In this document: one piece after another, positions 1 through 62,925 of the stretch
Position numbering within the stretch: the first letter of the stretch is position 1
Layout: every line of letters begins with the position of its first letter
IMG/VR virus record: IMGVR_UViG_3300020123_000428
Source of the DNA: an uncultured virus (IMG/VR IMGVR_UViG_3300020123_000428)
Taxonomy: Duplodnaviria > Heunggongvirae > Uroviricota > Caudoviricetes
DNA length: 64,000 nt
Direction: 5' to 3' (one strand)
Made by a program: the position numbers and the translations under genes
The notes under the pieces: model-generated
What the model saw: only the letters and a program-made list of their open reading frames with translations
The model's database searches: none
What the model was told of the DNA's origin: nothing

Positions 1-550
1 GCGCGAATCGTCTTGACAGGGATCTCGTCGACGACGACCGGCGGACCCGATCCCTCTTCGACCGAGATCTCGCCGAGGTATTTGCGGTATGGCATTGGTG
101 CCTTGCGGCGCGCAGAGCGGGCATCCCTGGCTCGCACGGTGCCGATGTACTTGCCCTCTGGCGACCAGGTGAGACGGAAGGAAGTAAGAGACTGCGGCAT
201 GAGAACCTCCAAGAGGTGTGAGAGCGGGACCGAGATGGGGCGGGATTCCGCGACTCGGACGAAACAGGGTAATGCGAACGCCTTGCCAGTCGCAAGTTGG
301 CCGGTCGCGAGCCGGCCGGATTCCGGAGTGGCAGAAGATGCCCAGAACCTACCGGATCGGCGTCAGATCTGGCAGGTTTTCACCACTCCGGAGGGTCACC
401 TGTCAGGCACTTAGGCCGTCCTCACGGCGTCCGTAGTGGGGTCGGAGACCCCCGGGGTGACAGGCCAGGGGCCACAGACCACAGATCCCGCCCATGGAAA
501 TCGCCTCGAAAGTCCACCGGAGGGCCGTGTGACGTCCGGCGGACGGGCGC

Positions 551-10161: not shown

Positions 10162-10169
10162 GGTGACCT

Positions 10170-10451: not shown

Positions 10452-11887
10452 CTAAAGTACGCGCCGACCGCGGGGTGGATCTCGTGCCCATCCTCTTCGT
10501 GAACGGCAAGCGTCGCGGCCTGCGGATCCGCGGATCGGCGTCGCTCGGCAAGGCGAACCCCGGCAAGCGTCGCGCCCGCAAGGGCAAGATGCCACCCGCG
10601 CTGGCGCGCTACTGGGCGAAGCGTCGCGGGCCCAAGCGGAAGCACCGGCAGCCGACCGCGCTGGCGCGCTACCATGCGCAGCGCCGCAAGGGGGGCAAGC
10701 GTCGCCGCGGCGCTGCCGCGCGGGCGCACGACAAGGGTCTTGCGGCGTTCGCCGCCCACAATCGCAAGCGAGGCCGTCGAGCCCGCAGGAGCAATGCTAT
10801 GGCAAAGGGATCTCGGAAGCGCGCCAAGGCCATGCGGGCCTACTGGCGCAAGCGCAAGGCGGCCGGCAAGAAGGGCGGCCTGGGGCGCACCAAGCGCGCG
10901 CGGCGCCGGCGCAGCAGCGCCGCTCCGAAGCGGCGTCGCGGCCGTGCGCGGAAGGCTGCGCACAAGCGCCGGCGGGCTCGCCGGACGCGGCGTACGCGCA
11001 CCCGGCGCACCCGCATGAGCAAGAAGATCCGTGGCCATCGCCGGCGGGCTCGCCGGGCGCGGGGTACGACCCGCCGGCGCCGCCGCTCGAGCATGCGCAC
11101 CATGCTGGGACCGGGCGGCGGGGCCGTCACGGTCAGGATGAACCCGGGCCGTCGGCGTCGCCGGCGTCGGACGCACGGGCGTCGGCGCGCGCGCCGCGTG
11201 CATCGCCGGTCGTACCGGCGATACCGCCGCGGCTACCGCCGCAACCCCGGCGGCATGCTGATCGATCTGGCCAAGAAGGCCGTGCCGGTGCTGCTGTCGT
11301 TCTACGGATCGCGGCTCATCGTCAACAAGATCGGCCCCATGCTGCCCGGCGTCTCGTCGCTGGGCTCGCTCCAGGGCCCGGCGCTCTCGATCGGTGCGGT
11401 CCTGCTCGCGAACGTCGCCACCAAGAAGGTGGGGGCGCTCGCGTCGCACCGCGAGGAGATCATGCTGGGCACGGCGTTCTCGGCCCTGGACGCGATCTTC
11501 CGCGCGTTCGCGCCGGCCAGCGTCCAGTCGATGATCGGCATGAGCGACTACGTCGCGATGAGCGACTACATCGCTGTGGGCGCGACGCCGCTCCCCGAGA
11601 ACTTCACCCTCTCGGACTACATCGCGGTCGGCAGCGACGGCGTGTCCGAGGAACTGGGGCTCGAGGAGGAGCTCGGGGTGGAGGAGGAACTGGGCGGCGC
11701 CATGGGCAACCCGCTCCTGGGCGGCATGCCCGGCGGCGCCTCGCTGCTCAAGCCGGTGCCGTCCCAGGCGTTCATCGCGCCGGTGCCGGCGCGCTCGTTC
11801 ACCAAGCAGATCCCCGCGGCGACCACGTCCTATGACGCGGCGGCCGACGTCTACGGGGGCATCTTCGGCGGCCGGTTCGGCGGCTGA
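10448..11887 (+). CDS. Arg/Lys-rich putative DNA-condensing core protein with hydrophobic and acidic C-terminal part
   Basis: ~250 aa dominated by R/K runs, then hydrophobic helices, SDY repeats and EELG repeats. Confidence 0.65.
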   Translation: MTKVRADRGVDLVPILFVNGKRRGLRIRGSASLGKANPGKRRARKGKMPPALARYWAKRRGPKRKHRQPTALARYHAQRRKGGKRRRGAAARAHDKGLAAFAAHNRKRGRRARRSNAMAKGSRKRAKAMRAYWRKRKAAGKKGGLGRTKRARRRRSSAAPKRRRGRARKAAHKRRRARRTRRTRTRRTRMSKKIRGHRRRARRARGTTRRRRRSSMRTMLGPGGGAVTVRMNPGRRRRRRRTHGRRRARRVHRRSYRRYRRGYRRNPGGMLIDLAKKAVPVLLSFYGSRLIVNKIGPMLPGVSSLGSLQGPALSIGAVLLANVATKKVGALASHREEIMLGTAFSALDAIFRAFAPASVQSMIGMSDYVAMSDYIAVGATPLPENFTLSDYIAVGSDGVSEELGLEEELGVEEELGGAMGNPLLGGMPGGASLLKPVPSQAFIAPVPARSFTKQIPAATTSYDAAADVYGGIFGGRFGG

Positions 11888-25677: not shown

Positions 25678-26297
25678 TGTCGGAGTTCCTGCACGTCCTC
25701 ATGGTCGGGTTCGCCATCATCGGCGCCGGGATGGTCCCCGTGGTGATCACCATCGCGGTGGCGCGGTACCGCGCGCGGCGCCGGGAGGATCGGCTCTCGT
25801 TCCTGGGCGTCCCGACCGGGTCACTGACCGGCTGGGACGCGACGCTCGAGTACGGGGACCACGAGGGCGGCATCTTCGATCGCGACACGCTAGATGCGTC
25901 GGTCGCACTGGAGCACAACCGGCGTGATCACGAGGAGTTCATGCGAGAGATCCAGATGGCGGAGGAGCGCCGCCACCGCGCGGAACAGCGCGCGCGCCGT
26001 GAGAAGCGGTGGGCGTGGCTCCCGTGGTCGAAGTACCGTCGCCGCAGGGCCGCCGAGTTGCGCTGGCAGGTCTCTCAGCTGGAAGATGAACTGAAGCTCG
26101 CGCGCTGGCGGGCCGCGCAGTACCGTCGACTTGCGATGGATCATGTCGACTGGATGGGCAGTGGTCTACTGGAGCAGATCAAGAATATCGACGATACCAT
26201 CGCGGTGGTGTTCGAGACTCCACGCGCGCACGCAACGGACCCGAGTCCCGCCGATGACGATATCCCGGCCAACGCGTACGAGGATCTCCTGCAATGA
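25677..26297 (+). CDS. membrane-anchored hypothetical protein
   Basis: N-terminal TM; AGGAG RBS; TGATG coupling. Confidence 0.5.
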   Translation: MSEFLHVLMVGFAIIGAGMVPVVITIAVARYRARRREDRLSFLGVPTGSLTGWDATLEYGDHEGGIFDRDTLDASVALEHNRRDHEEFMREIQMAEERRHRAEQRARREKRWAWLPWSKYRRRRAAELRWQVSQLEDELKLARWRAAQYRRLAMDHVDWMGSGLLEQIKNIDDTIAVVFETPRAHATDPSPADDDIPANAYEDLLQ

Positions 26298-27157
26298 GCG
26301 ACCTCGGGACGCGCCCGGCCGACCCGGGACACGTGAGCGACCTCGGGACGCGCCCGGCCGACCCGGGACACGTGCTGCGCGTCGAGCCGGACCCTGCCGC
26401 GCAGGGGCATACTCCACAGATCAGCCCGGAGATTCCGGGACCCGCCGATGATGCGTGTGGCGTGGCTGGTTCCGTTGAGGTCACGATCGCCAAGCCGCCG
26501 GCGACCCGCCGGCTCGACCTTGCCAGTGGCCAGAACGTCCGCGTGGGATTCGAAGGCGTCGACATCTGGCCGGGCGCGCAGCACGTCGTGAACCTCCAGC
26601 AGTACCCCTGGCCGTTCGAGGACGAGAGCGTGCTCGAGGTCAACTGCAGCCACTACATCGAGCACATCCCGATGGAGATGATCGTCGGTCGCCGCTGCAG
26701 GTGCTGCGGCGGCCACGGCATTGTGCGCTTCGAGGGGTCGGCGGAGCGATGCTCACACTGCCAAGATGGGGTGCAGGCATGGCCTGCCAAGGACGCCCTC
26801 TTCGCATTCTTCGACGAGTGCTACCGCATCCTGGTGCCCGACGGCTGGCTCCACGTAGTGGTGCCGGCGCACCGCTCGGACCGGGCGTTCCAGGACCCGA
26901 CGCACCGGAGGTTCATCACCGCGCAGACCTTCGCGTACATGAACCAGGAGTGGCGGCGGATCAACCGGCTCGACCACTACAACGTCGACTGCAACTTCGT
27001 GGGCAACGCCAACCCGGTGGTGGACCAGACACTGACCCTGCGGCACCCCGACGTCGCCCAGCAGATGATCCAGCGCAACTGGAACACCGTGATCGACTGG
27101 ACCGCCAGCATGCAGAAGAAGCCCCGCATGACGGTCAAGGTGTTCACGTCGCCATGA
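26294..27157 (+). CDS. class I SAM-dependent methyltransferase-like protein with Zn-finger insertion
   Basis: LDLASG, WPFEDESV, SHYIEH, ECYRILVPDG, DPTH; true start may be downstream of 26441. Confidence 0.7.
   Translation: MSDLGTRPADPGHVSDLGTRPADPGHVLRVEPDPAAQGHTPQISPEIPGPADDACGVAGSVEVTIAKPPATRRLDLASGQNVRVGFEGVDIWPGAQHVVNLQQYPWPFEDESVLEVNCSHYIEHIPMEMIVGRRCRCCGGHGIVRFEGSAERCSHCQDGVQAWPAKDALFAFFDECYRILVPDGWLHVVVPAHRSDRAFQDPTHRRFITAQTFAYMNQEWRRINRLDHYNVDCNFVGNANPVVDQTLTLRHPDVAQQMIQRNWNTVIDWTASMQKKPRMTVKVFTSP
26295..26441 (+). repeat. 39-bp tandem duplication and three GCCCGG-N5-CCGGGAC hairpins
   Basis: 26295-26333 equals 26334-26372; hairpins at 26313-26330, 26352-26369, 26424-26441. Confidence 0.7.
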
Positions 27158-38711: not shown

Positions 38712-39070
38712 GCTCGCCCCCGGGCGAGACACGATGACAAGGCCTTCACCTCCAAAGGAGAGCCGCATGCTGACCCGACATGTCGACCGCCCTCGCCTCC
38801 GCCCCTGCATCGCCTGCATCCTCGTCGCGCTGCTCTGCACGGCCGTCGCGGGTGCGATGTGTGCGTCGATCGACTACGTAGCGCGGATGGCGGTGACCGA
38901 CTATGGTCAGTCGCTGGGGACCATCAACACGTGCACGCTGCCGGTGGTCGACAAGGAATAGCTCCGGATCCGGAGACCGTCGCGCGCCCCGAGCGATCGC
39001 GGACAGCAGGCAACGGAGACAACTGCACGAACGACTCAGGGGCTGGCTCGGTGCCCACGCAAACCGACGA
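38712..39070 (+). CRISPR. dispersed hairpin repeats
   Basis: GCTCGCCCCCGGGCGAGAC 38712-38730; GCTCCGGATCCGGAGAC 38961-38977; half repeat CGGAGAC 39014-39020. Confidence 0.45.
38734..38961 (+). CDS. small membrane protein
   Basis: hydrophobic segment; start may be 38767. Confidence 0.35.
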   Translation: MTRPSPPKESRMLTRHVDRPRLRPCIACILVALLCTAVAGAMCASIDYVARMAVTDYGQSLGTINTCTLPVVDKE

Positions 39071-39097
39071 CCGAATCATGAACCGAAGGAGATCGAG

Positions 39098-41002
39098 ATG
39101 GGTAAGAAGACCGAACGTATCGCCGAGCTCGAGGAGACACTCGCATCCTCCCGGATGCTGATCTTGAGCATCGCGCAGGATCTCAACATCGCCGCGCTGC
39201 TGCCGCATGACTGGCGTCAGCACCCGTTCCAGGTGGCGCGGCTGTTTACTCGGGCGATCGGGATCCGGCCAGCGCCGGGCCCCGTCGCTCCGACGAGCTC
39301 GGCGGACGCCGAGACCGAAGCCGATCCTGTGTCGCGCTCGGCGCCGGCCGAGACGGGTACGACTAGACCGCGCTCGGCGTTCCCCGAGACGCCTGAGCTC
39401 CCGTCGTTCGACGCCATGGTCGACGACCAGGTGGCGAAGATCGAGCGAGCCAAGGCGCCGGTCGGCGCGAACGCCGTGGTCATCTCCGACCCAGGCGCCG
39501 AAGTACCGCTGGAGATGATGCATACGCTGCGCAACGTCATCGATGCGGTCGCCCAGGAGCTCGGCATCGAGCACGAAGGGCAGGCCCCGTTCGACGTGCT
39601 GTACGCCTGCTACAACGAGATCCGGCGGATAAAGAACCCCGACGGTACGATCGATGCCGACACCGGAGATGAGGCGCTGTCCAAGGGGGATTCCCTCGCC
39701 GAGGCGGTGGCGCACGGCCAGCGCACCGAGAACACGCTGCGGGAGCAGCTCGAGGCGTCGCGCACCCTGGTGAACCGGATCGCCGGCGCGCTGCAGATCA
39801 GCACGTGGTCACCGGATGGCGCAGAACTGCTTGAGCGCGTCCAGGCGTGGTCGACGGCACGCACGATCCTCCGGCGGTGGCACCGCTCGATCACGATCGA
39901 GGTCTCCGCCGATAGCAACGTGCGGGTCCCGGCGAGGCACGTACGGATCAGCCTGGCCGAGTTGATCGATCGGATGGATGGGCCCGGCTCGGCGGACCGA
40001 GACTTCAGGACGATGAAGACCGAGACCACCACAGCAACGTCCGCGACGAGCTCGGCGCCGGCGGAGACGGCAGCCCAAACAGCGACGACGTCCACGGACA
40101 AGGCGTGCCAGGTCTGCGCGCGTTTGGAGGCGCACCCGGACCACCGGGATCGCGGGATGACCAACTATCACCAGTTCGTGTCGAGCTCGGCGCCGGCCGA
40201 GACTGTTGCAGCGCCCGAGACAACCACAGCGGCAGCATCGCCCAGCGTCCTGACGGCGTGCCGGGTGTGCGGCATGCCCGAGGGGTTCTTCGATCACCAT
40301 GGGCTGGGGCCGATCGCCCACCCGTTCGTCCCCGGCGGCCAGTTCGCACCGGTGACCACGACGCGCTCGGCGCCGGCCGAGACGGTTGACACTCCGTCGG
40401 CGGCTCCAGGGATGCCGGTCGGCCTGCTCCTCGATGAGGAGAAGATCCAGCTTCTGCAGTGGCTGTCCGACCACTCCACGATGATCGGGGGGGCCAGCGG
40501 GCCGCGCGTCGTGCTTGACGACGTGATCCGGGCAGCCAAGATCGCGCTCGCCAGCGCCAAGCACCCGGACGACCCCGAGGAGCGGATGAAGCGGATCCGC
40601 GAGCGCATGAGCCGCCTGAAGCACGGACCGAAGGGCACCGGGCAACCTGGCTCGTGCGAGCCCGACTGCCTGAAGTGCGAGCTCGACCGCGAACTGAAAG
40701 CGCTGCAACTGGGACGCGCGGCGCCGATCCAGTGCATTCGCTTCACCGTGAGCCTCATCCGCGAGGCCGAACTCCCCGGCCAGTGGGTGTCCATCTTCCA
40801 TGAGCTCAACCTCAAGTCGGGCGGCGTGACGCCGCAACGCGCCCTCCTGGCAGGGGCTGCCGCCGTGCGGATGCTGGTGGACCACCGTATGACCCAGGAC
40901 AAGATGTTGGCCCACGAGGTGTTCGCGGCGCTGAAGGCCCAGGGCGGGTTCCGGGGCTTGTCGGACCGGATGATCCTGGCCGACGACAAGGAGCAGGGCT
41001 GA
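39098..41002 (+). CDS. large mosaic protein with SAPAET-type repeats
   Basis: AAGGAG RBS; TGATG-coupled to the Cas12m-like gene; CxxC...H motifs. Confidence 0.65.
   Translation: MGKKTERIAELEETLASSRMLILSIAQDLNIAALLPHDWRQHPFQVARLFTRAIGIRPAPGPVAPTSSADAETEADPVSRSAPAETGTTRPRSAFPETPELPSFDAMVDDQVAKIERAKAPVGANAVVISDPGAEVPLEMMHTLRNVIDAVAQELGIEHEGQAPFDVLYACYNEIRRIKNPDGTIDADTGDEALSKGDSLAEAVAHGQRTENTLREQLEASRTLVNRIAGALQISTWSPDGAELLERVQAWSTARTILRRWHRSITIEVSADSNVRVPARHVRISLAELIDRMDGPGSADRDFRTMKTETTTATSATSSAPAETAAQTATTSTDKACQVCARLEAHPDHRDRGMTNYHQFVSSSAPAETVAAPETTTAAASPSVLTACRVCGMPEGFFDHHGLGPIAHPFVPGGQFAPVTTTRSAPAETVDTPSAAPGMPVGLLLDEEKIQLLQWLSDHSTMIGGASGPRVVLDDVIRAAKIALASAKHPDDPEERMKRIRERMSRLKHGPKGTGQPGSCEPDCLKCELDRELKALQLGRAAPIQCIRFTVSLIREAELPGQWVSIFHELNLKSGGVTPQRALLAGAAAVRMLVDHRMTQDKMLAHEVFAALKAQGGFRGLSDRMILADDKEQG
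39297..39390 (+). CRISPR. intragenic three-repeat mini-array
   Basis: 19-nt GCTCGG-N6-CCGAGAC at 39297, 39336, 39372; spacers 20 and 17 nt. Confidence 0.55.
39987..40383 (+). CRISPR. intragenic hairpin repeats
   Basis: repeats at 39987-40003, 40050-40068, 40185-40203, 40365-40383; half repeats at 40020 and 40215. Confidence 0.5.
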
Positions 41003-42927
41003 TGTCGGTCCGCGTCTACGAGTACGGTCTGCGCGCGCCCACCTTCAACGCCGATCTGGTGGACGAGCAGATCTTCAAGGCCCACCGGTACCGCAACCTC
41101 CTGACCGAGATCGAGCAAGCGCGGCGCGTGGCCGTGCGGCAGATCATGAGCGCGCACCCCGACATGGTCCCGCTCGATGAGGAACTCCGGGTCCTGAACG
41201 AGCAGATCGAGGCCGCGCGGCAGGTCATCATGAGCGCTCGCAAGGCGACCCGGTCCCGCTCGGAGACCGCCGAGCAGCGCGCCCAGGTCCGCGAGCTCAC
41301 CGCCAAGGCCAAGGGGTTGCGGGAGCAGATCAAGGGCATCCGCAAGGCGGTGGCGGAGGACACCGCGATCCGCGAGGCGCTCGATCGCGCGGACGAGGAG
41401 TCGGAGGAGAAGATCCGCCAAGCCCGCGCGGTGTGTGGCGTGTACTGGGGGACCTACCTCCTGCAGGAGGCGGCGGCGCGGCAGGCTCGCCAGGAGCGCA
41501 TGCCGCCCAAGTTCCAGCGCTACCGCGGCGAGGGCCGGGTGTCGGTGCAGCTCCAGAAGGGCCTCGAGCTGGCGGACCTCTGGGGGACCGACACCCAGAT
41601 CCGCATCGAGCCGGTGGCCGAGGCCGCCCATGATCCGCTCACCCGCCGCGGCGATCGCCGGCGGCTCGCCCGCACCAACGTCATGATCCGGGTCGGCTCG
41701 GACAAGGGCAAGCCGATCTGGGCCACGTGGCCGATGATCTACCATCGCCCGCTGCCCAAGGGCGCGGTCCTGAAGGTCGCCACGGTCAGCCGACGTCGGC
41801 GCAACTGCTCGACCTGGGACTGGCGCCTCCACGTCACCGTGGACACCAGCGCGTGCGAGGCGCGCCCGGTGCCGGCAGGCGGCGTGGTCGCCCTGAACCT
41901 GGGCTTCTGCATGCGTCCCGGTGGCGGCGTCCGTGCCGGCTACATGGTCGGCAGTGATGGCGAGGAGCGGGAGATCTTGGTCAACAAGTCCGACGCCTAC
42001 CGCGGTCGGGACCTCTCCGTGGAGGAGCAAGCCCGGCTGGGCGAGTGGATCCCCAACGGCTTCGCCAAGGCGGAGAGCATCCAGTCGATCCGCGACAAGA
42101 ACCTCGACCGGTTGCGCGCCGCCCTCCTGGCGTGGCGCGGCCGCGCCGAGCTCGACATCGGGGCGATCACCGAGATGATCCAGGAGTTCCGGCGGGGCCC
42201 CCGCGACAACCCCCGCACCTGGAACTGGGGGGACCCGCCCCCGCCGGTGATCGCGCCCGAGATCCCGGAGTGGCTCATGACGACGACGCAGGCCATGCAC
42301 GCCTGGCGATCCCCCGACCGCTTCCGGTCCCTGTACCGCGCCTGGGGCCGCCAGCGCTTCGAGGGCGACGGGGTGGGCTACGAGTGCCTGGGTGCGTGGG
42401 TCGAGCGGGACGAGCACCTGGAGCACTACGAGGCCGGTCTGCGGCGCTCCGCACTCCTGGACCGCCGCGAGTCCTACCGCATCCTGGCCGCCCAGATGGC
42501 CCGCACCTACGCCACCCTGGTCATCGACGACACCGATCTGCGCGCCTTCCAGCGCAGCCCCTCCCCCGAGAGTGGGGATGTCGAGTTCAACGCCGTGAAG
42601 CGGAACCAGCGCCTCGCCGCCGGCAGCGAGCTACGAGGCGTCCTCATGAACGCCTTCGGGCCCGGCCGGACGGTCAAGCTCTCGGCCAAGGATGTCACCC
42701 GCCGCTGCTACCACTGCGGCACCATCAACCAGTGGGAGCGATCCACCGCCGACCGCCTCCACACCTGCAGCGAGTGCAAGGTCCAGTGGGACCAGGACGC
42801 CAACGCCTGCCGGAACCTCCTGCGAGAGCACGAGCACACCAAGGACGCACCCGCAGCGCCGGCCCCGGACAAGAAGCCCAGCCGCTCTGAGCGCCTCCTG
42901 GAGGCCAAGCGCCGGCGGGCCGCGTGA
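41002..42927 (+). CDS. cas12m: Cas12m-like (type V-M) / TnpB-superfamily RNA-guided DNA-binding protein with non-canonical RuvC
   Basis: 641 aa; long N-terminal coiled coil; YWGTY, RYRGEGRVSVQLQ, YHRPLP, VALNLGF (RuvC-I, N for D), WRSPDRF..L..AW, LVIDDTDL (RuvC-II, D for E), CYHC/CSEC Zn finger, WDQDANA (RuvC-III); blocks match my recollection of MmCas12m. Confidence 0.8.
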   Translation: MSVRVYEYGLRAPTFNADLVDEQIFKAHRYRNLLTEIEQARRVAVRQIMSAHPDMVPLDEELRVLNEQIEAARQVIMSARKATRSRSETAEQRAQVRELTAKAKGLREQIKGIRKAVAEDTAIREALDRADEESEEKIRQARAVCGVYWGTYLLQEAAARQARQERMPPKFQRYRGEGRVSVQLQKGLELADLWGTDTQIRIEPVAEAAHDPLTRRGDRRRLARTNVMIRVGSDKGKPIWATWPMIYHRPLPKGAVLKVATVSRRRRNCSTWDWRLHVTVDTSACEARPVPAGGVVALNLGFCMRPGGGVRAGYMVGSDGEEREILVNKSDAYRGRDLSVEEQARLGEWIPNGFAKAESIQSIRDKNLDRLRAALLAWRGRAELDIGAITEMIQEFRRGPRDNPRTWNWGDPPPPVIAPEIPEWLMTTTQAMHAWRSPDRFRSLYRAWGRQRFEGDGVGYECLGAWVERDEHLEHYEAGLRRSALLDRRESYRILAAQMARTYATLVIDDTDLRAFQRSPSPESGDVEFNAVKRNQRLAAGSELRGVLMNAFGPGRTVKLSAKDVTRRCYHCGTINQWERSTADRLHTCSECKVQWDQDANACRNLLREHEHTKDAPAAPAPDKKPSRSERLLEAKRRRAA

Positions 42928-43319
42928 CGCCGCGCGAGCGATGGGATGCGGCGGTGGCGCTCCAGCACCAGACGGTAGCGCAGATCGCCAGACTTCCGCT
43001 GGACGAGGCCGGCGACAGTTCGTGCACGGATCTGGTCAACCGCGCCACCTACGAGCTGATGGAGGCGTACCGGGAGTTGAGGTACGAATACGAGTCGCAC
43101 GCTTGGCGTGGGTCAGAACCACATCCGTTGTACGACTTGCTCATGCCAGAGTGGTACGCGGCGTACAATCTGCACCGTGAGGCGATGTTCCAGCGGGAAC
43201 GCGTGGGCACGCTCTACCGAGCCACTCTGGCTATCGATGAGCAGTGCCTCGCAATGGCGCGCGTGTATTCGGCGATCCCGTCGCACCTGAAGGTGGACTC
43301 GACCGGCGTCGAGGCATGA
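42924..43319 (+). CDS. hypothetical protein
   Basis: GTGA-coupled to the cas12m-like gene. Confidence 0.5.
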   Translation: MTPRERWDAAVALQHQTVAQIARLPLDEAGDSSCTDLVNRATYELMEAYRELRYEYESHAWRGSEPHPLYDLLMPEWYAAYNLHREAMFQRERVGTLYRATLAIDEQCLAMARVYSAIPSHLKVDSTGVEA

Positions 43320-43366
43320 TGAACTCGGACAACATTCCGAGGCCGGCTCGATGTGCTCTGGGAATG

Positions 43367-43506
43367 GCTCGTCGCCGACGAGACCAGCTGTCGTCCCTGG
43401 TTCCGCTCGGGGATGCCCGAGACGAGTGGGAAGTTGTGGTCAGGATCCGCTCGGGGATCGCCGAGGACAGGTCACAGCCGAGACGCGTTCATCAACTGCC
43501 CGAGAC
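43367..43506 (+). CRISPR. degenerate mini-array downstream of cas12m-like gene
   Basis: hairpins 43367-43384, 43405-43423, 43449-43468; half repeats CCGAGAC at 43478 and 43500; spacers 20 and 25 nt. Confidence 0.6.
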
Positions 43507-43531
43507 CCGTGCTCTCAGTCCCAAAGAGGTT

Positions 43532-43903
43532 ATGATGAATCCCCGCGATCAAGAGTTGTTCGACGGCCGCCCGAAGATCACCAAGCCGTGCCCTCATTGT
43601 TCCGGGCATGGCCGGGTCACAGTCGGCTATGCGCTCATCCACTTCGAGCGTGCGTCGATGCCTGAGCCACTGGACAGGATCCCGCCCGACGCGATCTGCG
43701 CCCTGGTCGTCGGCTCCTCCGGCATCTACGAGTGCTGCAAGGAGGCGGTCGAGATCGCGGCTCGAGCGCAACGTCCCGTTGCCTTCGAGTTCTGCAGTCA
43801 GATCGTCATCGCCAGAGCAGGGGATGATCCGGTCCGGCTCGCACGCGAGTGGTGGATGATCGAGTACAAGGAGACACCAGAGGCCAGCGCCGCGCGACGA
43901 TGA
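43532..43903 (+). CDS. hypothetical protein (CPHCSGHG)
   Basis: GAGG RBS; flanked by mini-arrays. Confidence 0.5.
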   Translation: MMNPRDQELFDGRPKITKPCPHCSGHGRVTVGYALIHFERASMPEPLDRIPPDAICALVVGSSGIYECCKEAVEIAARAQRPVAFEFCSQIVIARAGDDPVRLAREWWMIEYKETPEASAARR

Positions 43904-43911
43904 CACAAGGT

Positions 43912-44030
43912 GGTCCAGCTCGGTGGGTTCGACCGAGACGCGCTCTCGTCAACCATCGGGTTCCGCTCGGGGAATCCCGAGACGCCAGAGCAAGGGATGT
44001 CCGGTCCAGCCCAGTGGCAGAACCTGGGAC
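43912..44030 (+). CRISPR. three-repeat mini-array
   Basis: GGTYCM + hairpin + AC at 43912-43939, 43959-43983, 44003-44030; two 19-nt spacers. Confidence 0.65.
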
Positions 44031-44109
44031 AGTTGTGCTGCCTTGCCAGTGGAAAGTTCACTTGACACCCGACGTCTGCTTCGCACAGGCTGTCGGGTAA
44101 GGAGATCCC

Positions 44110-44514
44110 ATGCTCACCGCCGAACAACTCCATGACCTGCACCGCCGCGCTGATGCGGTGACCCTGCCCAGTGCCGGGCCGTTCTGTGCTCGGACCGCGG
44201 CTCGACTGCTCTCGGGGACCCACTTCCTGACCAGCGCGTGGGGCCCGCCAGCCATGCAGGCCGCGTGTGCGCGTCTCGCTCAGGGAGAGATCACCCAGAC
44301 CGACGAGTTGCCCATCAGCATCCTGTCGGCGGCGGTCCGCGGGCTCCTCCTGGTGTTCTCGGTGGAGCACGTCCGCGCCGCGCTGGCGTTCTGGGCCAGC
44401 GAGAACGATCCCGCCGTCTGGCGCGCGGTCACCGAGGATGGATCGGCATGGCTCGACGTGACCCGTCGAGACGGTGGTGGCGATGCGCAGCGGCTAGCTC
44501 GGCAGAACGGCTGA
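44110..44514 (+). CDS. hypothetical protein
   Basis: AAGGAG RBS; 3' end overlaps hairpin repeats. Confidence 0.5.
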   Translation: MLTAEQLHDLHRRADAVTLPSAGPFCARTAARLLSGTHFLTSAWGPPAMQAACARLAQGEITQTDELPISILSAAVRGLLLVFSVEHVRAALAFWASENDPAVWRAVTEDGSAWLDVTRRDGGGDAQRLARQNG

Positions 44515-44517
44515 GAC
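44451..44517 (+). CRISPR. two-repeat mini-array
   Basis: GCTCGACG-N5-CGTCGAGAC 44451-44472; 24-nt spacer; GCTCGGC-N6-GCTGAGAC 44497-44517. Confidence 0.5.
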
Positions 44518-44571
44518 GCGTCTGAGAACGACTCGCGATCTCTTGCGAGGCATGTCCGCAGCTTAGCTGCA

Positions 44572-44934
44572 TCAGATGTGGTACCGAATGTAGATCTCGA
44601 GCGAGGGAGGTCCCCCGTCCATGGACGGCGTGGCGATCTCGATGAGGAAGTTGGCGTTCGTGGTGCCCTGCTTGTTGATGGCGATGGGCCCCAGCGGGCT
44701 ACCGAGCTGGGAGGCGAAGCACGCCTCGACGGCCACGACATCCTGCAGTCCCCGGATGTGGCCCTGATAGTTGTAGGGCTGCGGCGCGAAGGTCTCCGGC
44801 AGCACCAGATCGGGCGTGGCCTGGCTGCCGAACAGGCCGATCGATGCCGAGGAGTTCGCCGCGATCGCGGTCCCCGTGATGCGGAGCATGTTGTCGGCGA
44901 TCTGCGTGACGGTCGGGGTACCCACGAACGGCAT
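44572..44934 (-). CDS. beta-rich protein, paralogue 1 (possibly structural)
   Basis: clear similarity to 45091-45450 (QI.D...RITG...PD.VLP.TF.PQ.Y.Y...LEIY.RYH). Confidence 0.65.
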   Translation of the reverse strand: MPFVGTPTVTQIADNMLRITGTAIAANSSASIGLFGSQATPDLVLPETFAPQPYNYQGHIRGLQDVVAVEACFASQLGSPLGPIAINKQGTTNANFLIEIATPSMDGGPPSLEIYIRYHI

Positions 44935-45090
44935 GGAGGTCTCTCCCTGAATTGGAGGGTGACCCTTGCCGGCGGCGGTTGTGCGCACGCGCGCCGCGTT
45001 AGCGGCCTCGAGCACCGGGGAAGCGATGTCGGTGTGGTGCCTCCCGGGCGGTCATGCCCGACGTCTCACTGGCCATTTAGGCCAATGCGA

Positions 45091-45450
45091 CTACTCGTGG
45101 TAGCGGACGTAGATCTCGAGCGCCGGCGTCGCGATGGTGAAGCCGTTGCTCAGGGTCGCCCGGAAGTCGGCATCGGTGGTGCCGGTCTTGGCGACGCCGA
45201 CCTGCTCGAAGTCCGCCACGACCGCAGCGGGGTTGGCGGTCACCTGGACGGCGTCGGCCAGGTGGACCGTGTTCGCCCCGTAGGTGTAGTTCTGGGGGTT
45301 GAACGTCGCCGGGAGCACGACATCGGGCGTCGCGCCGCTGTGGCCGGTGAGCGCGATCGTGCCGCTGGCACCCGCCGCCAGCGAGAGTCCGGTGATGCGC
45401 ACGAGACGGTCGGAGATCTGCAGGATGGTCGCGGTGCCGGTGAATGCCAT
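45091..45450 (-). CDS. beta-rich protein, paralogue 2
   Basis: similar to 44572-44934. Confidence 0.65.
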   Translation of the reverse strand: MAFTGTATILQISDRLVRITGLSLAAGASGTIALTGHSGATPDVVLPATFNPQNYTYGANTVHLADAVQVTANPAAVVADFEQVGVAKTGTTDADFRATLSNGFTIATPALEIYVRYHE

Positions 45451-45499
45451 GGGGGAGACGGTATCACCGCTCACCTTGCAGGTTCAATACCTACCTGAT

Positions 45500-45594
45500 G
45501 TCTCGGGTGGTGGTTAGTTCCGTTGGCGTCTCGGAGCACACGACGCCGTCGTCTCGGTTCCGTCCCATCGGCCGTAGTCTCGGCGTCCCCGAGC
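45500..45594 (-). CRISPR. one full hairpin followed by three CCGAGAC half-repeats
   Basis: GTCTCGG on + strand at 45500, 45528, 45551, 45577; spacers 16-21 nt. Confidence 0.55.
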
Positions 45595-45766
45595 GGGTCA
45601 CGTGCTACTGTAGCACGGTCGACGAGCACCCTGGGGCTATGCACAAGAAACTCACCTGTCTCTGCAACCGGCAATCGCACGTCGGCCGAGTGACCCAGGT
45701 GGATGTCGCCTGCGCCTGAAACGGATGCTGGGGGGCTCGTCGACCGTCTGACCAGGAGCGGAAACC

Positions 45767-45940
45767 ATGAAGCGCAAGCTGATCCTCAAGTCCCAGACCC
45801 TGCGCGTGCTCTCGTCGCGTGATCTCGCCACCGCGGTCGCTGGCGAGGCCGCCATCAGCGCGGCATGGTGCCAGACCCAGCGCAATTGTCCGCCGCCGGC
45901 CAGCGATGGCTTCAGCTGCGGCGGCAACACGCACGACTGA
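45767..45940 (+). CDS. RiPP/lanthipeptide-precursor-like peptide
   Basis: AGGAG RBS; MKRKLILKSQTLRVLSSRDLATAVAG leader; Cys/Ser/Thr core; 57 aa, below ORF-track cutoff. Confidence 0.55.
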   Translation: MKRKLILKSQTLRVLSSRDLATAVAGEAAISAAWCQTQRNCPPPASDGFSCGGNTHD

Positions 45941-45960
45941 TCCAGGATCACGTCGATGTC

Positions 45961-46011
45961 GTCTCCGGGTTCGGCCTCGGAGCGCGGTCTGTCGTCTCGG
46001 ACGCGCCGAGC
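45961..46011 (-). CRISPR. two hairpin repeats
   Basis: 45961-45983 and 45994-46011. Confidence 0.4.
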
Positions 46012-46183
46012 TCGCCCGCTGAACCTCTATGGGCCTCGGCGCCGCCGAGTTGGTCCACGCAGACATAGCACATGCGGACGTTCGCCACCTCGCGCCAGCG
46101 ACGGTGTGGCTTGGCTCGATACCCGGCGTCCCGGCGCCGCCGGCCGCAGCGCGGGCATCGCCGGGTCTTGTGGCCACGTCGTT

Positions 46184-46735
46184 TCAGGGTTGCTCTCGCT
46201 TCGCGTGCGCGAGGTCGGCCTCGGAGGGTCCGCCTCCCAGGTCCCCGGTCAGGTCGGACAGGTCCTGATCGCCCAGGGCGGTCTCCGGCATCGGCGCGCC
46301 GTCCATCAGCGTGGCGACCTTGAGCGGCGATGGCGGCGGCGCCGGCGGGGCCGCTGGCGGGGCGCCCAGCCGGACCAGCACCCCCTTGGCCGCCGTGCGA
46401 TCTTTGGGCACCGGCACGGTGCGGGGCTCGGGCGCCCGCACGGTGCGGTCCTTGTACACCATCCGCGGTGGCGGCGCCGGGACCGGGCGCCGAGCCGGCG
46501 CCGGCGCAGGTGTCTGGACGTTGTTGCGGGCGACCGCCTGGACCACGGCGCCGACATCGACCGAGGCCGGCACCGCAGTCAGGTGGCCGTTGACCAGCAG
46601 ATCGTGATCCGGGGGGATCTTGGTCACCACGCCCCGCACGGGGACCGTGTACGGCGTGGCGTTGGCGAGCTCGAACGATGTCCCCGGGCTCTCGGCCGCG
46701 GGCCTCTCTTCGGTCGGGGGCTGACTCATGATCAC
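46184..46735 (-). CDS. Pro-rich hypothetical protein
   Basis: GAGG RBS. Confidence 0.5.
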   Translation of the reverse strand: MIMSQPPTEERPAAESPGTSFELANATPYTVPVRGVVTKIPPDHDLLVNGHLTAVPASVDVGAVVQAVARNNVQTPAPAPARRPVPAPPPRMVYKDRTVRAPEPRTVPVPKDRTAAKGVLVRLGAPPAAPPAPPPSPLKVATLMDGAPMPETALGDQDLSDLTGDLGGGPSEADLAHAKREQP

Positions 46736-46751
46736 CTCTGGCCGGAGGGTA

Positions 46752-47147
46752 TCACGTGTGGACGCGCAGGCGGTCGCCGACGATGCGAGACGTGCTGGGC
46801 GGCAACTCGTCCAGGTCCCCCGCCACCCAGCGGTCCACCAGCGCCCGGAACTCCGAGGCCCTCTTGAGCTCCACGGGCGGCAGGTGCGCCGCGTCCACCC
46901 GCGCCACCGCGTCCCCGGGCTGGCGCTCGAAGAACGCGATCCGCACCAGCGGGTCCCGGCGCCCGGTCGCGCACGGCACGCTGATCCAGGTCTTCGCCGC
47001 GCTGAAGATGTCGAACTCGACCACCATCACCACATGGTCCGACACCTGCCACTCCCGGGCGCTGTCGTCCCGGGCGGACAAGAGCGCCGAGAACCGCTCG
47101 CACACCTGTTGGTATCGCATCTGCCCGGAACGTAGCATTGTGGTCAT
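46752..47147 (-). CDS. hypothetical protein
   Basis: ORF in minus arm. Confidence 0.45.
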   Translation of the reverse strand: MTTMLRSGQMRYQQVCERFSALLSARDDSAREWQVSDHVVMVVEFDIFSAAKTWISVPCATGRRDPLVRIAFFERQPGDAVARVDAAHLPPVELKRASEFRALVDRWVAGDLDELPPSTSRIVGDRLRVHT

Positions 47148-47237
47148 GCGCCTCGGTATCTGAAATGAACCGAGTCTCACCGTTCGATACCCTTGTCACC
47201 AGACGACGACGGATGCTGCCATCGCCTGCAACCGCTC

Positions 47238-47406
47238 GTCTCGGTTCACCCGAGCCGGTTCTCAACCAATACCGGCATCGATAGCGTCTCGGTTCAGCCG
47301 AGCCGATCTCGACAAGAGTCCCGGCGATCCGGCGATCCGGGCCAGTCTCAACCCAGCGCGCTTGTCTCGGACGCAATCCCGAGCCCATCTCGGAAAACGC
47401 CGAGCG
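47238..47406 (-). CRISPR. four-to-five-repeat mini-array
   Basis: hairpins 47238-47256, 47286-47304, 47318-47343, 47364-47385 and degenerate 47387-47406; the four main units are each preceded by GAGA. Confidence 0.6.
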
Positions 47407-47408
47407 CG

Positions 47409-47780
47409 TCACATCGCTTCGGAGATGCCCCGGCCCTTGCCGAAGATCACCTTCCAGATCGCGCCGGCCAGCGGAATGGAGAGCGTGGCCGCGATCTGGA
47501 GCCACTTCTGGAGCTCGGCAGTCTTGAGCGTCTGCACTCCCGCCTGGAGCTGCGCCATCACGTTGGCTTGCCACTGGGCGGTGGCCGGATCGGTCAGGGT
47601 CGGCTGCGAGAGCGTGCTGGCTGACGCCGGATCGTCGCCCAGCGAGCCCAGCGCCGGCCCCATCTGGCGGTGCACCCGCGCCCGCGACAACGGGGTCGAG
47701 ACGCCGCCGATGGCCGTGTACCAGCGGGGGCCGTGAGCGGTGTCGCCGGAGAGCGCGCGATGCTTGCGGTGGTAGGACAT
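47409..47780 (-). CDS. membrane-anchored virion-type protein
   Basis: basic N-terminus, ALGSLGD, C-terminal TM. Confidence 0.6.
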   Translation of the reverse strand: MSYHRKHRALSGDTAHGPRWYTAIGGVSTPLSRARVHRQMGPALGSLGDDPASASTLSQPTLTDPATAQWQANVMAQLQAGVQTLKTAELQKWLQIAATLSIPLAGAIWKVIFGKGRGISEAM

Positions 47781-47792
47781 GGGGCCCCTTGT

Positions 47793-48407
47793 TCAGTTGG
47801 TGGCGAACACGCCCAGGTTGGCGGCGCCGATGGCGTCGTCGATCGCCAGGTCCGACAGATCGCCCTGCGCTGGCGGCGATGCCTGCGGACCTGCGTTGGT
47901 CACCTTGCCGCCGCTGGACACGCCGTAGCGCCCGGCGTCGAAGGCGTCGTTGTACGTGAACTCGTTCGGGTCCTCGTCCGTCGGTTGCAGCATGGCCGCC
48001 TGGCTCTGGGCGGCGAGCTGGTTCTGGGCGGTCGTGGTCGCGGCCGCGATCTCCGGCGTCGCATCCGCGATCACCCACCCCAGGGTCGGTAGGTAGAGTT
48101 GGATGATGGACTGGATCGCCGCGATCGCGGAGCCGACCACCACGGGCGTGTGGTACTTCTCGATCCACTTCACTCGGTGGGCCAGGAACCACGCCGCCAG
48201 GAACGAGCCGACCGAGGTCACCGCGCCCGCGTGCTTCGCCCAGCCGGGCGAGAGCTTGGCGACCTGGGTGGCGGCGATCCGGGTGGCGAACCGCGTGGCC
48301 GCGAACCCCGCGAACCCCGGCACGATGTACTCGACCAGGTCCGTGAAGAGGGGCGGGTTGCGCCGCATGGGCTTCACGTACCGACGATGCATTGTGGAAC
48401 GCGCCAT
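47793..48407 (-). CDS. membrane virion-type protein
   Basis: MRRNP then hydrophobic helices and acidic tail; architecture like C-half of 10448-11887. Confidence 0.6.
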   Translation of the reverse strand: MARSTMHRRYVKPMRRNPPLFTDLVEYIVPGFAGFAATRFATRIAATQVAKLSPGWAKHAGAVTSVGSFLAAWFLAHRVKWIEKYHTPVVVGSAIAAIQSIIQLYLPTLGWVIADATPEIAAATTTAQNQLAAQSQAAMLQPTDEDPNEFTYNDAFDAGRYGVSSGGKVTNAGPQASPPAQGDLSDLAIDDAIGAANLGVFATN

Positions 48408-48507
48408 GTCCTGTGTTGCTCCTGCGCGGCCCCGGGTACGCGCCGTAGGCCACAGGGTAGCCCGGGATCGGCCGGTGGTTCAAGCCCCTTCCTCGGCAGC
48501 GCGTGGT

Positions 48508-48662
48508 GTCCCGGCCTCCCCGGGCAGGTCCCCTCGTAGTTCATGAGCCGTCTCGGTCGCCCGAGCGTCGCTAGTTCCCCGTCCCCGCTTGGGGGGCTCA
48601 TCTTGAGCGCCGCCAGCACACGTCTCGCAGGCAGGGCACACCCGTCTCGCCGCTTCGCGAGC
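48508..48662 (-). CRISPR. mini-array with covarying hairpins
   Basis: hairpins 48508-48525, 48550-48566, 48581-48597, 48644-48662; half repeat 48622-48627; spacers 14-24 nt. Confidence 0.6.
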
Positions 48663-60770: not shown

Positions 60771-62039
60771 TCATGGACGCATGGACGCGCGCCACGCCGG
60801 CGGCTCGAGAGCGGTCGCGAACGTCGCGGCGACCCTCCGATCCCGGGTGCTTGCCGCTTGCAAGAGCACGGCGGCCTCGAAACTGCGCGACAAGAAGGCC
60901 AGGCCATCGGCGATCTCGATCTGTAGACTGGGGATGCGCTGTCCGGCCTCGAGCACGCGCCGGACGTCGTCGCGATCGATGTCCCAGACCTCGCCGTGTA
61001 CCTCGTAGTGCGCGACGAGATCGTCGACCGAGAACACGTACACGGTGTCGGGCATGACCATCGCGACGTTCTCGGGGATCTCGGAGACGACCTGGTAGAA
61101 CGCGTTGGTCCGGATGTGGATGGTGCTGATCCGGAACATCGGCGGGAGCATACTGTCGGCGACCGTGACTGCGTCCTCCCGGCGCAGCGTAGTTACCGGG
61201 AGCTTGGCGCCGCGGACCTCCATCATCTGCTGGCTCGGGCGTCCGATCGGCCGCGCCTGAAACAAGATCCCCCGCGCCTGCAGGCCGTCCGGATCGTGGG
61301 CCTCATCATCCTCCTGGGGGGCGGTCGGGATGGCCGACGGATCGATCACGGCGATGTGGCCCGGATCGGTGATGACCCACCGGCCACCCACCATGCCGAA
61401 GTTGCCCTCGTGCAGGTCCCCGAAGAAGATGTGCTGCTCCTCCCAGATCTGCACGAGTCCCTGTCCGATCGGCTGCAACTCCGGGAAGTCGGTCTGCTGG
61501 GCCATCGTGTGGCACGCACGCAGCCACTTCGCCAAGAGCGGACCCATCAGGCGGCTGTGCTTCTGGACCTCGCGGAAGGCGTTCTGGGCCGCGAGGTGCT
61601 GGCGCTCCATCAGGTCCCGCGCGTCCTCGGGGAGTTCGCTCATGCCGCCGACGCGCTCGGCCGAGTCTCGCCACAGCAGGTACACGCGCCGGTTGTCGTG
61701 AAACTCGCCAGTGTCCTTGACCACGTGGTAGTGGACGCAGATCGGCGCCACGAGCTGGTTGGCCAGAGTGGCCGCGAACTCGGCCTCGGTGTGGTCGGTG
61801 GTGATCTTCAGGACCACCGCCGGATCCAGCGTGGGGATCACGCAGCCGTACGCGCCGCAGCCGTACTCCTTGACCGCGGCGACCACGCGACTCCCGCGGG
61901 CGACCGGGCGGACGTCCATGAGCCGCGGCAGCCATCGCGACGGCATCGAGTCCTCGAGATCCTCGTAGACCCGGCCGATGATCTCCGCCACCCAGGGCGG
62001 GTTCTGGACGAAGGCGTCGGGTGACGGGCGCGCGCGCAT
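60771..62039 (-). CDS. protein-kinase-like protein
   Basis: GCGAYGCV glycine loop, VLKIT, GDLHEGN catalytic loop, ITDPG. Confidence 0.7.
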   Translation of the reverse strand: MRARPSPDAFVQNPPWVAEIIGRVYEDLEDSMPSRWLPRLMDVRPVARGSRVVAAVKEYGCGAYGCVIPTLDPAVVLKITTDHTEAEFAATLANQLVAPICVHYHVVKDTGEFHDNRRVYLLWRDSAERVGGMSELPEDARDLMERQHLAAQNAFREVQKHSRLMGPLLAKWLRACHTMAQQTDFPELQPIGQGLVQIWEEQHIFFGDLHEGNFGMVGGRWVITDPGHIAVIDPSAIPTAPQEDDEAHDPDGLQARGILFQARPIGRPSQQMMEVRGAKLPVTTLRREDAVTVADSMLPPMFRISTIHIRTNAFYQVVSEIPENVAMVMPDTVYVFSVDDLVAHYEVHGEVWDIDRDDVRRVLEAGQRIPSLQIEIADGLAFLSRSFEAAVLLQAASTRDRRVAATFATALEPPAWRASMRP

Positions 62040-62925
62040 GGTGGTATCTTACGAGGGATTCATGGAGATCTCCGAGAAGAACCTGTCGGGGTTCCGCGAC
62101 TGGCTCCGGGGGCGCGGGCGGACCGAGGGGACGGCCGAGACCTACTGCATGAACCTCCGCACCTGTGGCGCCGACCCCAAGGGGCTGACCCACCGCCTGA
62201 TCGCCGGCGACCTCGCCCCGACCACGCTGCGCTGTAACCTCGCGTCCCTCCGAGCCTGGGCGCTGTACGCCAAGGACGGCACCCTGTCCCAGACCCTGGC
62301 CGACCTGCGCCTCCCGCCGCCGCGCCGCATGAAGTCCCGTGATCCGCTGGATCGCGAGGACTGGAAGCGGATAGTGCGCCACCTCCAGACCTGCGACATG
62401 ACCAACGAGGCCATGCGTCAGATCCTGCTCATCATGGCGCTCCGGGGCCTCAGGTCCGGCGACGTTCTGCGGCTCCGCCGCGCCGAGGTCGTCCGCGCCG
62501 TTGCCAGCGGCAAGCTCTCCTACGAGGGCAAAGGCAGGAAGCGCATCGAGCTCTCGGCGGCGCCGATCCGGGGGCCGCTCGAGGCGCTCGCGCAGATGCG
62601 CGGCTGGGACCGCGTGCGTGACCTCCTCGGAACCGCTCGCTCCGGCGAGACGCTTGCATCGTCGGCGCTGCGCAAGAAGGTGTGGCGTGCCGCGATCCGC
62701 ACCGGCGCCGCGGCCGGCATCGACGAGATGAACCCGCACCGCTACCGGCACACGTTCGCGACGCAGTACCTGGCCCAGCTCGCTGGCGACCCCAATAGCA
62801 TCGTGAAGCTGCAGCGGTACATGCACTGGGAGTCGATGGGGACCGCGGCGCGGTACGTCGACCACGTGTCCCGCGAGCAACTCGATAAGGTGGGCGACGA
62901 CATGGTGTCCGACCTCCTGACCTGA
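62038..62925 (+). CDS. tyrosine recombinase/integrase
   Basis: GLRSGD (R), GKG (K), HRYRHTFA (HxxR), MHW, ARY (Y); start 62038 or 62062. Confidence 0.85.
   Translation: MVVSYEGFMEISEKNLSGFRDWLRGRGRTEGTAETYCMNLRTCGADPKGLTHRLIAGDLAPTTLRCNLASLRAWALYAKDGTLSQTLADLRLPPPRRMKSRDPLDREDWKRIVRHLQTCDMTNEAMRQILLIMALRGLRSGDVLRLRRAEVVRAVASGKLSYEGKGRKRIELSAAPIRGPLEALAQMRGWDRVRDLLGTARSGETLASSALRKKVWRAAIRTGAAAGIDEMNPHRYRHTFATQYLAQLAGDPNSIVKLQRYMHWESMGTAARYVDHVSREQLDKVGDDMVSDLLT

Follow-up and report, generated by a model that had tools for sequence, protein, structure and literature searches.

Type V-M CRISPR (short palindromic repeats, clustered and regularly interspaced) systems, represented by MmCas12m/Cas12m2, GoCas12m and PmCas12m (8hhl, 23vw, 23vu), are the closest described relatives of the locus analysed here, in which a cas12m homologue is followed by two small clusters of hairpin-forming units, termed mini-arrays, lying on either side of a small gene. 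The locus is carried by an uncultured virus (IMG/VR record IMGVR_UViG_3300020123_000428), of which a stretch of 64,000 nucleotides (nt), referred to as the window, was analysed. In the Cas12m2 CRISPR RNA (crRNA), a G(-23).A(-2) pair closes a 6-bp helix (-22..-17 / -8..-3), which is followed by C(-1) and the guide; the heteroduplex measures 17 bp and positions -36..-30 are disordered (PMC10442227). A heteroduplex of the same length was described for PmCas12m, which trims its guides to 17-18 nt (PMC10442227; 10.64898/2026.03.26.714355), and Cas12m proteins with an N-D-D triad were reported to be catalytically inactive DNA binders (PMC11013384; 10.64898/2026.03.26.714355). Type V-M is known from plasmids and 'some prophages' (PMC11656645). 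The window system shares with these a homologous effector, the non-canonical N-D-D triad, a G.A-closed handle of 5-6 bp followed by C(-1), the sufficiency of guides of ~17 nt and, as far as the 72 scanned reading frames show, the lack of Cas1/2/4. Unlike them, it lies on a temperate-looking phage of ~80 kb, its array is split by a gene, and instead of repeats of ~36 nt with spacers of ~35 nt it has three units per cluster, of 24-28 nt, with spacers of 14-19 nt, and dozens of handles running through neighbouring operons and coding sequence.

A preprint of September 2026 claims the first phage Cas12m, that of MV-1, with an ordinary eight-spacer array (10.64898/2026.09.14.751636). This myxophage locus is likewise phage-encoded, devoid of adaptation genes and without identified targets, whereas it is described as having a single ordinary array and a D-E-D triad. 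In other CRISPR types, mini-arrays have been described, as have solitary repeats and crRNA-like regulators, including viral multiplexed 'Cracr' arrays that hijack host Cas proteins (10.1101/2023.03.03.530964; 10.1101/2024.10.29.618823). CreR/CreA (Shmakov et al., 10.1101/2023.03.03.530964) and Cracr (10.1101/2024.10.29.618823) resemble the window units in having worn or truncated repeats and short tails near cas genes, in being sometimes multiplexed and in binding rather than cutting. However, they partially match a cas or toxin promoter, no such match being found for the window spacers within the window, and viral Cracrs exploit a host Cas protein while the window phage brings its own; type V-M was not found among the types listed for them in the accessible texts. 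Racr solitary repeats are also single hairpins that derive from a repeat, have no clear spacer and lie in phage intergenic regions, but they mimic the host repeat as decoys, whereas the window effector is phage-encoded and adjoining (PMC11656645). The accessible literature, supplements aside, yielded no account of V-M repeats shortened in this way and combined with 19-nt spacers, nor of a phage whose own genes are interspersed with handle hairpins. The reading preferred here, to which a probability of about 0.5 is given, takes both clusters for CRISPR arrays in miniature (psi-repeats) that belong to a type V-M system carried by the phage, with their tails acting as guides.

Anatomy of the mini-arrays

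A preliminary description of this DNA had proposed two regular mini-arrays downstream of an effector, sandwiching a small gene, and both a direct reading of the letters and a parse by script confirmed them as two plus-strand clusters (Table 1). Their units have the form GGTYCNG, G-closed stem of 5-6 bp, loop, stem and AC, and recur with a period of 44-47 nt, separated by spacers of 14, 19, 19 and 19 nt that are all mutually dissimilar. The units at 43399 and 43959, claimed to be nearly identical, are 25-mers differing at two positions; no other copy with three mismatches or fewer exists in the window, and none of 100 shuffles contained any match. Of the core GCTCGG-N2-9-CCGAGAC the window has 15 copies, where 100 shuffles averaged 0.20 and never exceeded 3. 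The two 19-nt spacers of the second array were found as described, and the 25-28-nt unit is, as had been suggested, the best local definition of the repeat. The borders of the first array required correction: the cluster is real, but it starts six bases earlier, at 43361, once the 5' flank is included, its first unit has a different stem and its last two are only halves. In the last unit of the second array the shape is retained with a stem changed on both sides (CCCAG/CTGGG). Under R1, a small covariance model whose E-values are rough and whose training set holds most of the window matches, the three units of mini-array 1 scored E 0.011, 8.9e-5 and 0.0016, all three being training members. 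This array is followed by a ribosome-binding site, after which the small gene starts.

The DNA of mini-array 2 was recovered letter for letter in a contig from another soil run. Among sequencing runs, six of soil-metagenome DNA and none of RNA were matched (best share 0.32), and short identical contigs from four of the six contained no array variants. Rfam gave no match over the whole window at the gathering threshold, blastn of 38900-45500 gave none in the phage database, and the 25-nt repeat, searched as an IUPAC (International Union of Pure and Applied Chemistry) pattern, had 0 occurrences in viral_contigs and 0 in metagenome_contigs. A promoter scan of 42800-44700 returned no sigma-70-like site, and the two terminator-like sites of that interval both lie away from the hairpin units.

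The Cas12m effector

The neighbouring protein, assumed in the preliminary description to be a CRISPR effector, is a Cas12m homologue with the triad of the reported binding-only type. In a phmmer search of PDB, the 641-aa protein matched 23vw_A (E 3.8e-58, in two stretches, residues 7-329 and 420-608), Cas12m2 8hhl (2e-20) and UnCas12m4a (1e-19), with TnpB at only ~0.5; the Pfam TNB domain was reached at E 1.7e-5 with 25.3 bits, slightly short of the cut-off of 26.3, and 127 cas12m homologues were found. N299 (RuvC-I) aligns with the His of 'ALHLGW' in Cas12m2 and the Asp of 'AIDLGW' in 23vw, D509 and D599 represent RuvC-II and RuvC-III, and an alignment of 25 sequences from the closest relatives shows no variation at any of the three. 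In length (the Cas12m family has ~550-650 aa) and in its RuvC/TNB C-terminal half the protein conforms to Cas12m, for which D-E-D, H-D-D and N-D-D triads have been reported. Judged by this triad only, the window protein would bind DNA without cleaving it and silence transcription. No Cas1, Cas2 or Cas4 domain was detected among the 72 window open reading frames (ORFs) scanned with Pfam. The possibility that the hairpins are the ends of TnpB/omega-RNA elements was rejected, since the protein groups with Cas12m and its relatives bear true arrays.

Relationship to canonical type V-M repeats

Relatives were gathered from 43 viral, 80 metagenomic and 6 genome loci by alignment-based locus searches; single-protein searches found nothing. 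Ordinary arrays are present in 42 of 123 records (411 guides), usually directly downstream of cas12m and on the same strand, and the mini-arrays occupy this same canonical position. The repeats of the relatives measure ~36 nt, with hairpin-to-hairpin gaps of 47-51 nt that correspond to spacers of ~35 nt, and a large share of them end in G-CTCxxx-loop-xxxGAG-AC (L011, L074, L016, L009, L014, L061, L030 and L006; also L046). Among 19 window units, G precedes the stem in all 19 and AC directly follows it in 17, the exceptions being 47387-47411, which ends in AT, and the worn unit 43443-43468, which has GAC; the handle stem cells are paired in 86 of 86 cases, in units that were chosen for pairing. 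Since this pattern is common to the repeats of the relatives and to the solved Cas12m2 crRNA, the window units are identified, on sequence grounds, as the 3' two-thirds (3' handle) of the V-M repeat, the mini-array units consisting of this handle plus a 7-nt 5' flank.

A tree built from 74 Cas12m rows places the window in a well-supported clade of 19 rows (SH-aLRT, the Shimodaira-Hasegawa-like approximate likelihood ratio test, 99) that mixes canonical loci (L006, L074 and, by eye, L046) with 'short' ones; the array classes were assigned automatically and are crude, L024 and L046 being classed as 'none' despite visible canonical arrays. The earlier suggestion that short spacers suit a binding-only effector holds insofar as 19 nt are long enough for the 17-bp heteroduplex, but shortness is no requirement, given that the relatives use spacers of ~35 nt.

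Dispersed hairpins and their association with cas12m

The two mini-arrays are not a closed system, as the same hairpin is scattered over ~11 kb, and they are the most regular and best-preserved members of a dispersed family of handle hairpins. The window contains 35 matches to the pattern GCTC-NN-(3..12)-NN-GAGAC. The two free pairs can form in 26 of these, as against a single one of the 12 matches given by the reversed-sequence control; of the 26 units paired in this way, 23 are found within 37.8-48.7 kb, around cas12m. Their strand follows transcription, being plus up to 44517 and minus from 45577, with the switch in gene orientation. Some of the dispersed units precede minus-strand genes, in leaders and gaps; others are situated at the 3' end of the gene encoding a 134-aa protein or within orf634. 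In this last gene, the units stand in the same frame and six of the seven encode peptides of the S-A-x-x-E-T type (SSADAET, RSAPAET, RSAFPET, SSAPAET), 39987-40003 reading GSADRD; three come after repeated CxxC...H..H modules, and the segment with the hairpins, a variable linker, is missing from the homologues in L044, L045, L003 and the phage G002, which has no cas12m. Farther away, the start of ORF 26294-27157 carries an exact tandem duplication of 39 nt (13 codons), each copy with a G-CCCGG-ccgac-CCGGG-AC hairpin, and a third hairpin follows at 26418-26441. Next to the opposite-strand units 45961-46011 lies a 57-aa ORF (45767-45940, plus strand), antisense to the minus-strand genes, with a basic, leader-like N-terminus, a Cys-rich C-terminus, a GC content at third codon positions (GC3) of 0.88 and no Pfam match.

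The hairpins appear to go with cas12m (Table 2), and the best evidence of this is the contrast with G002, a complete family member of 79.9 kb with terminal repeats and no Cas12m. G002 retains homologues of the small gene, orf634 and the 134-aa gene as well as the promoter-like block described below, and has no hairpins at these places. On the other side stands G001, a complete 86-kb phage (locus L001) with a Cas12m 45% identical to that of the window, ten pair types and nine clusters spread across its genome. Within the L001 group the cas12m genes are 87-97% identical, but the hairpin region of the cas12m leader is a mosaic of common and unshared hairpin-plus-tail modules whose stems change on both sides (CTCGGC/GCCGAG, CTCGTC/GACGAG, CTCAGC/GCTGAG, CTCCG/CGGAG, CTCTGG/TCAGAG). 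In the syntenic L002 and L003, G-CCAGCG..CGCTGG-AC and G-CCCGGC..GCCGGG-AC hairpins fill the corresponding gaps. Such compensatory stem changes, with invariant G..AC flanks over dozens of copies, indicate that the pairing of the hairpin is under selection.

Table 1. Positions of the mini-arrays, effector, neighbouring genes and dispersed hairpin units in the window
Feature	Position	Strand	Description
Mini-array 1	43361..43506	+	units 43361-43384, 43399-43423, worn 43443-43468, then two half-units
Unit of mini-array 1	43361-43384	+	GGAATGG CTCGTC gcc GACGAG AC; stem unlike other units
First spacer of mini-array 1	43385-43398	+	14 nt
Unit of mini-array 1	43399-43423	+	GGTTCCG CTCGGG gatg CCCGAG AC
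Second spacer of mini-array 1	43424-43442	+	19 nt
Worn unit of mini-array 1	43443-43468	+	end is GGAC
Half-units of mini-array 1	43469-43484, 43485-43506	+	only ..CCGAGAC retained
Mini-array 2	43912..44030	+	units 43912-43939, 43959-43983, 44003-44030; starts nine bases past small-gene stop
Spacers of mini-array 2	43940-43958, 43984-44002	+	19 nt each
cas12m	41002..42927	+	641 aa, type V-M effector homologue; N299-D509-D599 RuvC triad, CxxC..CxxC TNB zinc finger
orf131	42924..43319	+	131 aa; GTG start overlaps cas12m stop; GC3 0.80
Small gene	43535..43903	+	122 aa; alternative ATG 43532; GC3 0.77
Leader of 134-aa gene	44031..44109	+	promoter-like block ..CCAGTGGAAAGTTCACTTGAC..
134-aa gene	44110..44514	+	kept beside cas12m in relatives (tblastn, many loci); hairpin units 44451-44472, 44497-44517 at 3' end
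orf634	39098..41002	+	634 aa; directly upstream of cas12m; seven in-frame hairpin units
In-frame units of orf634	39297-39315, 39336-39354, 39372-39390, 39987-40003, 40050-40068 (imperfect), 40185-40203, 40365-40383	+	
Minus-strand units (45500..48662)	45577-45594 (then three CCGAGAC half-units), 45961-45983, 45994-46011	-	ahead of minus-strand genes
Minus-strand units, continued	47238-47255, 47286-47303, 47364-47384, 47387-47411	-	the last ends in AT
Minus-strand units, continued	48508-48531, 48550-48566, 48644-48662	-	the first with CCGG stem
Three G-CCCGG-loop-CCGGG-AC hairpins	26307..26441	+	start of ORF 26294-27157; R1 E 0.0033, 0.0033, 0.016, outside training set

Table 2. Hairpins in the window and in related phages
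Genome	cas12m	Clustered hairpins (number of clusters)	Matches to pattern (paired)	Reversed-sequence control (paired)	R1 matches at E<=0.05
G002	absent	0 (0)	10 (3)	9 (1)	0
Window	present	12 (4)	35 (26)	12 (1)	24, 7 outside training set
G001	present	51 (9)	79 (66)	16 (1)	9
G003	present	30 (6)	61 (41)	8 (2)	
G004	present	0 (0)	14 (4)	19 (5)	

Spacers and target searches

The target searches covered the 64-kb window of the 81.6-kb contig, in which the short matches proximal to a protospacer adjacent motif (PAM) were of low complexity only; shuffled guides gave 47-74 matches at two mismatches or fewer. Against the phage database at E<=10, the mini-array queries returned chance-level hits only, with no whole-spacer alignment of meaningful E-value.

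A scan of IMG/VR was made with the three 19-nt spacers as 17-mers, the 14-nt spacer 43385-43398 being left out. Spacer 43424-43442 matched 17/17 in 15 viral contigs (L159-L173), and 19/19 in 8 of these 15, at one site in a ribonucleotide-reductase gene; the other two spacers gave 2 unrelated matches and 0 matches. This match may be due to chance, as a background of 0-2 independent matches per 17-mer and a 1-in-16 two-base extension would allow, and it is a lead rather than evidence. The phages carrying the site have 44-54% GC, against 68% in the window, which argues against a shared host, and the 5' flank of the site reads AGG, GGG, GGC or AGC.

Among the relatives, self-matches were found for ordinary arrays. 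In G003 (locus L006), a 35-nt spacer of the array near C1:18361 (minus strand) corresponds to the phage's own cas12m, in sense orientation, at C1:11461-11495 (5' flank ..CCGAGG). In L010, two spacers of the array 9776-10529 match, 30/30 each, both strands of one site (7096-7160) within a gene for an Uma2-family endonuclease (PF05685, E 2.9e-19), ~870 nt upstream of cas12m. The 5' flanks of the G003 and L010 self-matches, AGG, TGC and AGG, are unlike the T-rich PAMs reported for the studied Cas12m proteins. For 67 guides of G001, the rest of its complete genome offered nothing within one mismatch, array copies excepted.

Gene neighbourhood

The start of cas12m overlaps the stop of the upstream ORF. 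Downstream, orf131 has one distant homologue (P0123, E 7.8e-8), a best atlas score of 0.75 that serves as a lead only, and no Pfam or PHROG match. The small gene is genuine and exists in phages independently of cas12m; its homologue in G002 shares 43% identity (E 3e-20, tblastn), or 46% in a pairwise alignment. Its product matches nothing in Pfam or PHROG, and the model (pLDDT, predicted local distance difference test, 76) had no Foldseek match in PDB at E<=0.001. Ahead of the 134-aa gene, a promoter-like block (CACTGTCAAG-N8-CTTGAC, with a variant at 44040-44075 of the window) also occurs in L044 (~3290-3320), L045 (~9240-9270) and G002 (C1 ~43560-43600).

At a larger scale, the window represents a temperate-looking phage with an integrase (61978-62925), an M23 peptidase, a Dam methylase, DUF5131 and a tail-spike-like protein; a transfer RNA scan gave no clue to an attachment site. 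Two paralogous proteins of 147 and 127 aa (44572-45015 and 45091-45474, both on the minus strand) have 42-53% identity in all the related phages found, and they were used as the family marker (alignment A4). Within a 591-aa phage protein (17730-19505, plus strand), a response-regulator receiver domain scored slightly over the cut-off (PF00072, E 2.2e-7), and the gene is followed by one for an M23 peptidase.

Proposed function and alternative explanations

According to the preferred reading, that of miniaturised V-M arrays, the clusters would be transcribed with an operon orf634-cas12m-orf131-array1-small gene-array2. The N-D-D Cas12m would bind each hairpin and trim the transcript to crRNA-like RNAs of ~42-45 nt, whose 3' tails of 17-19 nt would guide it to bind DNA without cutting, blocking transcription of a putative target. 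The period of 44-47 nt equals a handle plus a guide of 17-19 nt, that is, one trimmed crRNA, so that these would be the tightest possible V-M arrays. A guide function of the mini-arrays is plausible.

Several observations weigh against it. No convincing protospacer was found: searches of the window, of the other loci and of four whole phages, G001, G003 and G004 among them, recovered homologous arrays and chance-level hits. The sole near self-match, 43984-43999 against 43811-43826 in the small gene (15/16, or 16/17 with the preceding repeat C), has ATC on its 5' side, and it looks like a local duplication (43810-43838 / 43983-44012), because the match continues, with one indel, into the flank of the next unit. 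The loops of the window units measure 3-9 nt and, by eye, contain no complement to the 5' flank, the second helix or pseudoknot being absent, whereas canonical relatives can pair the loop with the 5' part of the repeat (ATGGT/ACCAT in L046, GCCAC/GTGGC in L045); since such loops are too short for a second helix, binding by Cas12m is not assured. The RNA folds of the whole arrays are not stabler than shuffles (z -1.09 and +0.67). The other clusters, with spacings of 2-60 nt, half-units lacking the 5' arm and copies within coding sequence, are unlike a layout of one guide per unit, and within the L001 group many gaps measure 6-14 nt and some 'spacers' are repeated within one array. Furthermore, the syntenic phage G004 has cas12m and only single or paired hairpins, with no cluster of at least three, and the contrast with a genome devoid of cas12m comes from one genome only.

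Some of these features would be better explained if the hairpins were handle-only cis elements, at which Cas12m binds or cleaves the phage's own messenger RNAs (mRNAs), in leaders, intergenic regions and a linker of orf634, setting transcript boundaries, stability or translation, or is itself titrated or autoregulated, the 3' flanks guiding nothing. This main rival, which is somewhat unlikely, accounts more easily than the guide reading for the irregular spacing, the half-units and the seven in-frame copies in orf634. It is also favoured by the location of every unit on the transcribed strand, by the lack of genomic matches for the 67 G001 guides and by the distance of 25-33 nt that separates cluster ends from start codons (for example 43506 to 43532/43535 and 45500 to 45474, as well as in leaders of cas12m in L001, L055, L111, L050, L052 and L053). 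It explains less well the regular 19-nt spacing and the dissimilar, guide-like spacers of the mini-arrays; moreover, the canonical relatives plainly use guides, and no mRNA-regulating role of Cas12m was found in the accessible literature. A bolder proposal, which is unlikely and put forward as a speculation, is that in this lineage of ~80-kb soil phages the handle hairpin colonised the phage's own operons, including leaders, intergenic gaps and protein linkers, and the nuclease-dead effector became a regulator of its genes, either cutting or holding their mRNAs or being directed by the sense-strand tails to the template strand of the genes from which these tails come, so that the region around cas12m would be silenced in a self-limiting, RNA-guided manner. 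The spacers of G003 and L010 that match their own cas12m and the Uma2-family gene point in the same direction.

It is improbable that the units are merely decaying relics of a canonical array broken by gene insertion or recombination, with hairpins spread by duplication and no present function. The worn units and half-units, the local duplication noted above and the mosaic hairpin regions between phages with 87-97% identical cas12m would fit such decay, but the compensatory stem changes and invariant flanks speak of selection, the strand always tracks transcription, and cas12m is intact with conserved active-site columns. That the hairpins have nothing to do with Cas12m and are, for instance, RNase sites, REP-like repeats or terminators lacking a U-tract is very improbable, even though DNA of this kind readily contains short GC-rich hairpins (~105-132 of the generic G..AC form occur in shuffles) and the units are intergenic and clustered. 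Repetitive extragenic palindromic (REP) sequences and bacterial interspersed mosaic elements (BIME) are clustered, short, GC-rich intergenic palindromes that are mosaic between strains, to which the window hairpins are similar; however, no gene resembling RAYT (REP-associated tyrosine transposase) was seen, and the window units share homology with a CRISPR repeat and are found together with cas12m. Their sequence is that of the 3' part of true Cas12m repeats, they are absent from the sister phage without cas12m, no T-run terminators stand at their sites and no Rfam family matches them. Finally, the units could be RNA decoys or hijackers of the Racr/Cracr type, mimicking repeats so as to soak up or redirect a host Cas12m. 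Solitary repeats are indeed known from phages, as are multiplexed crRNA-like arrays directed at Cas proteins of the host (PMC11656645; 10.1101/2024.10.29.618823), and truncated repeats with short spacers would fit, but this phage encodes its own matching effector beside the units, which makes the idea barely credible.

Implications for the phage lineage

If a 25-nt unit with a 19-nt spacer were indeed processed and used, it would be the smallest natural Cas12m guide cassette, at ~44 nt per guide and without a pseudoknot partner, and it would be useful for compact multiplexed designs of Cas12m CRISPR interference and base editors. For the phages themselves, the preferred reading would mean that a binding-only effector is kept while its array dissolves into the phage's own transcription units, blurring the line between defence or competition and gene regulation. 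The lineage would thereby provide a testable case of CRISPR repeats turning into regulatory RNA elements.

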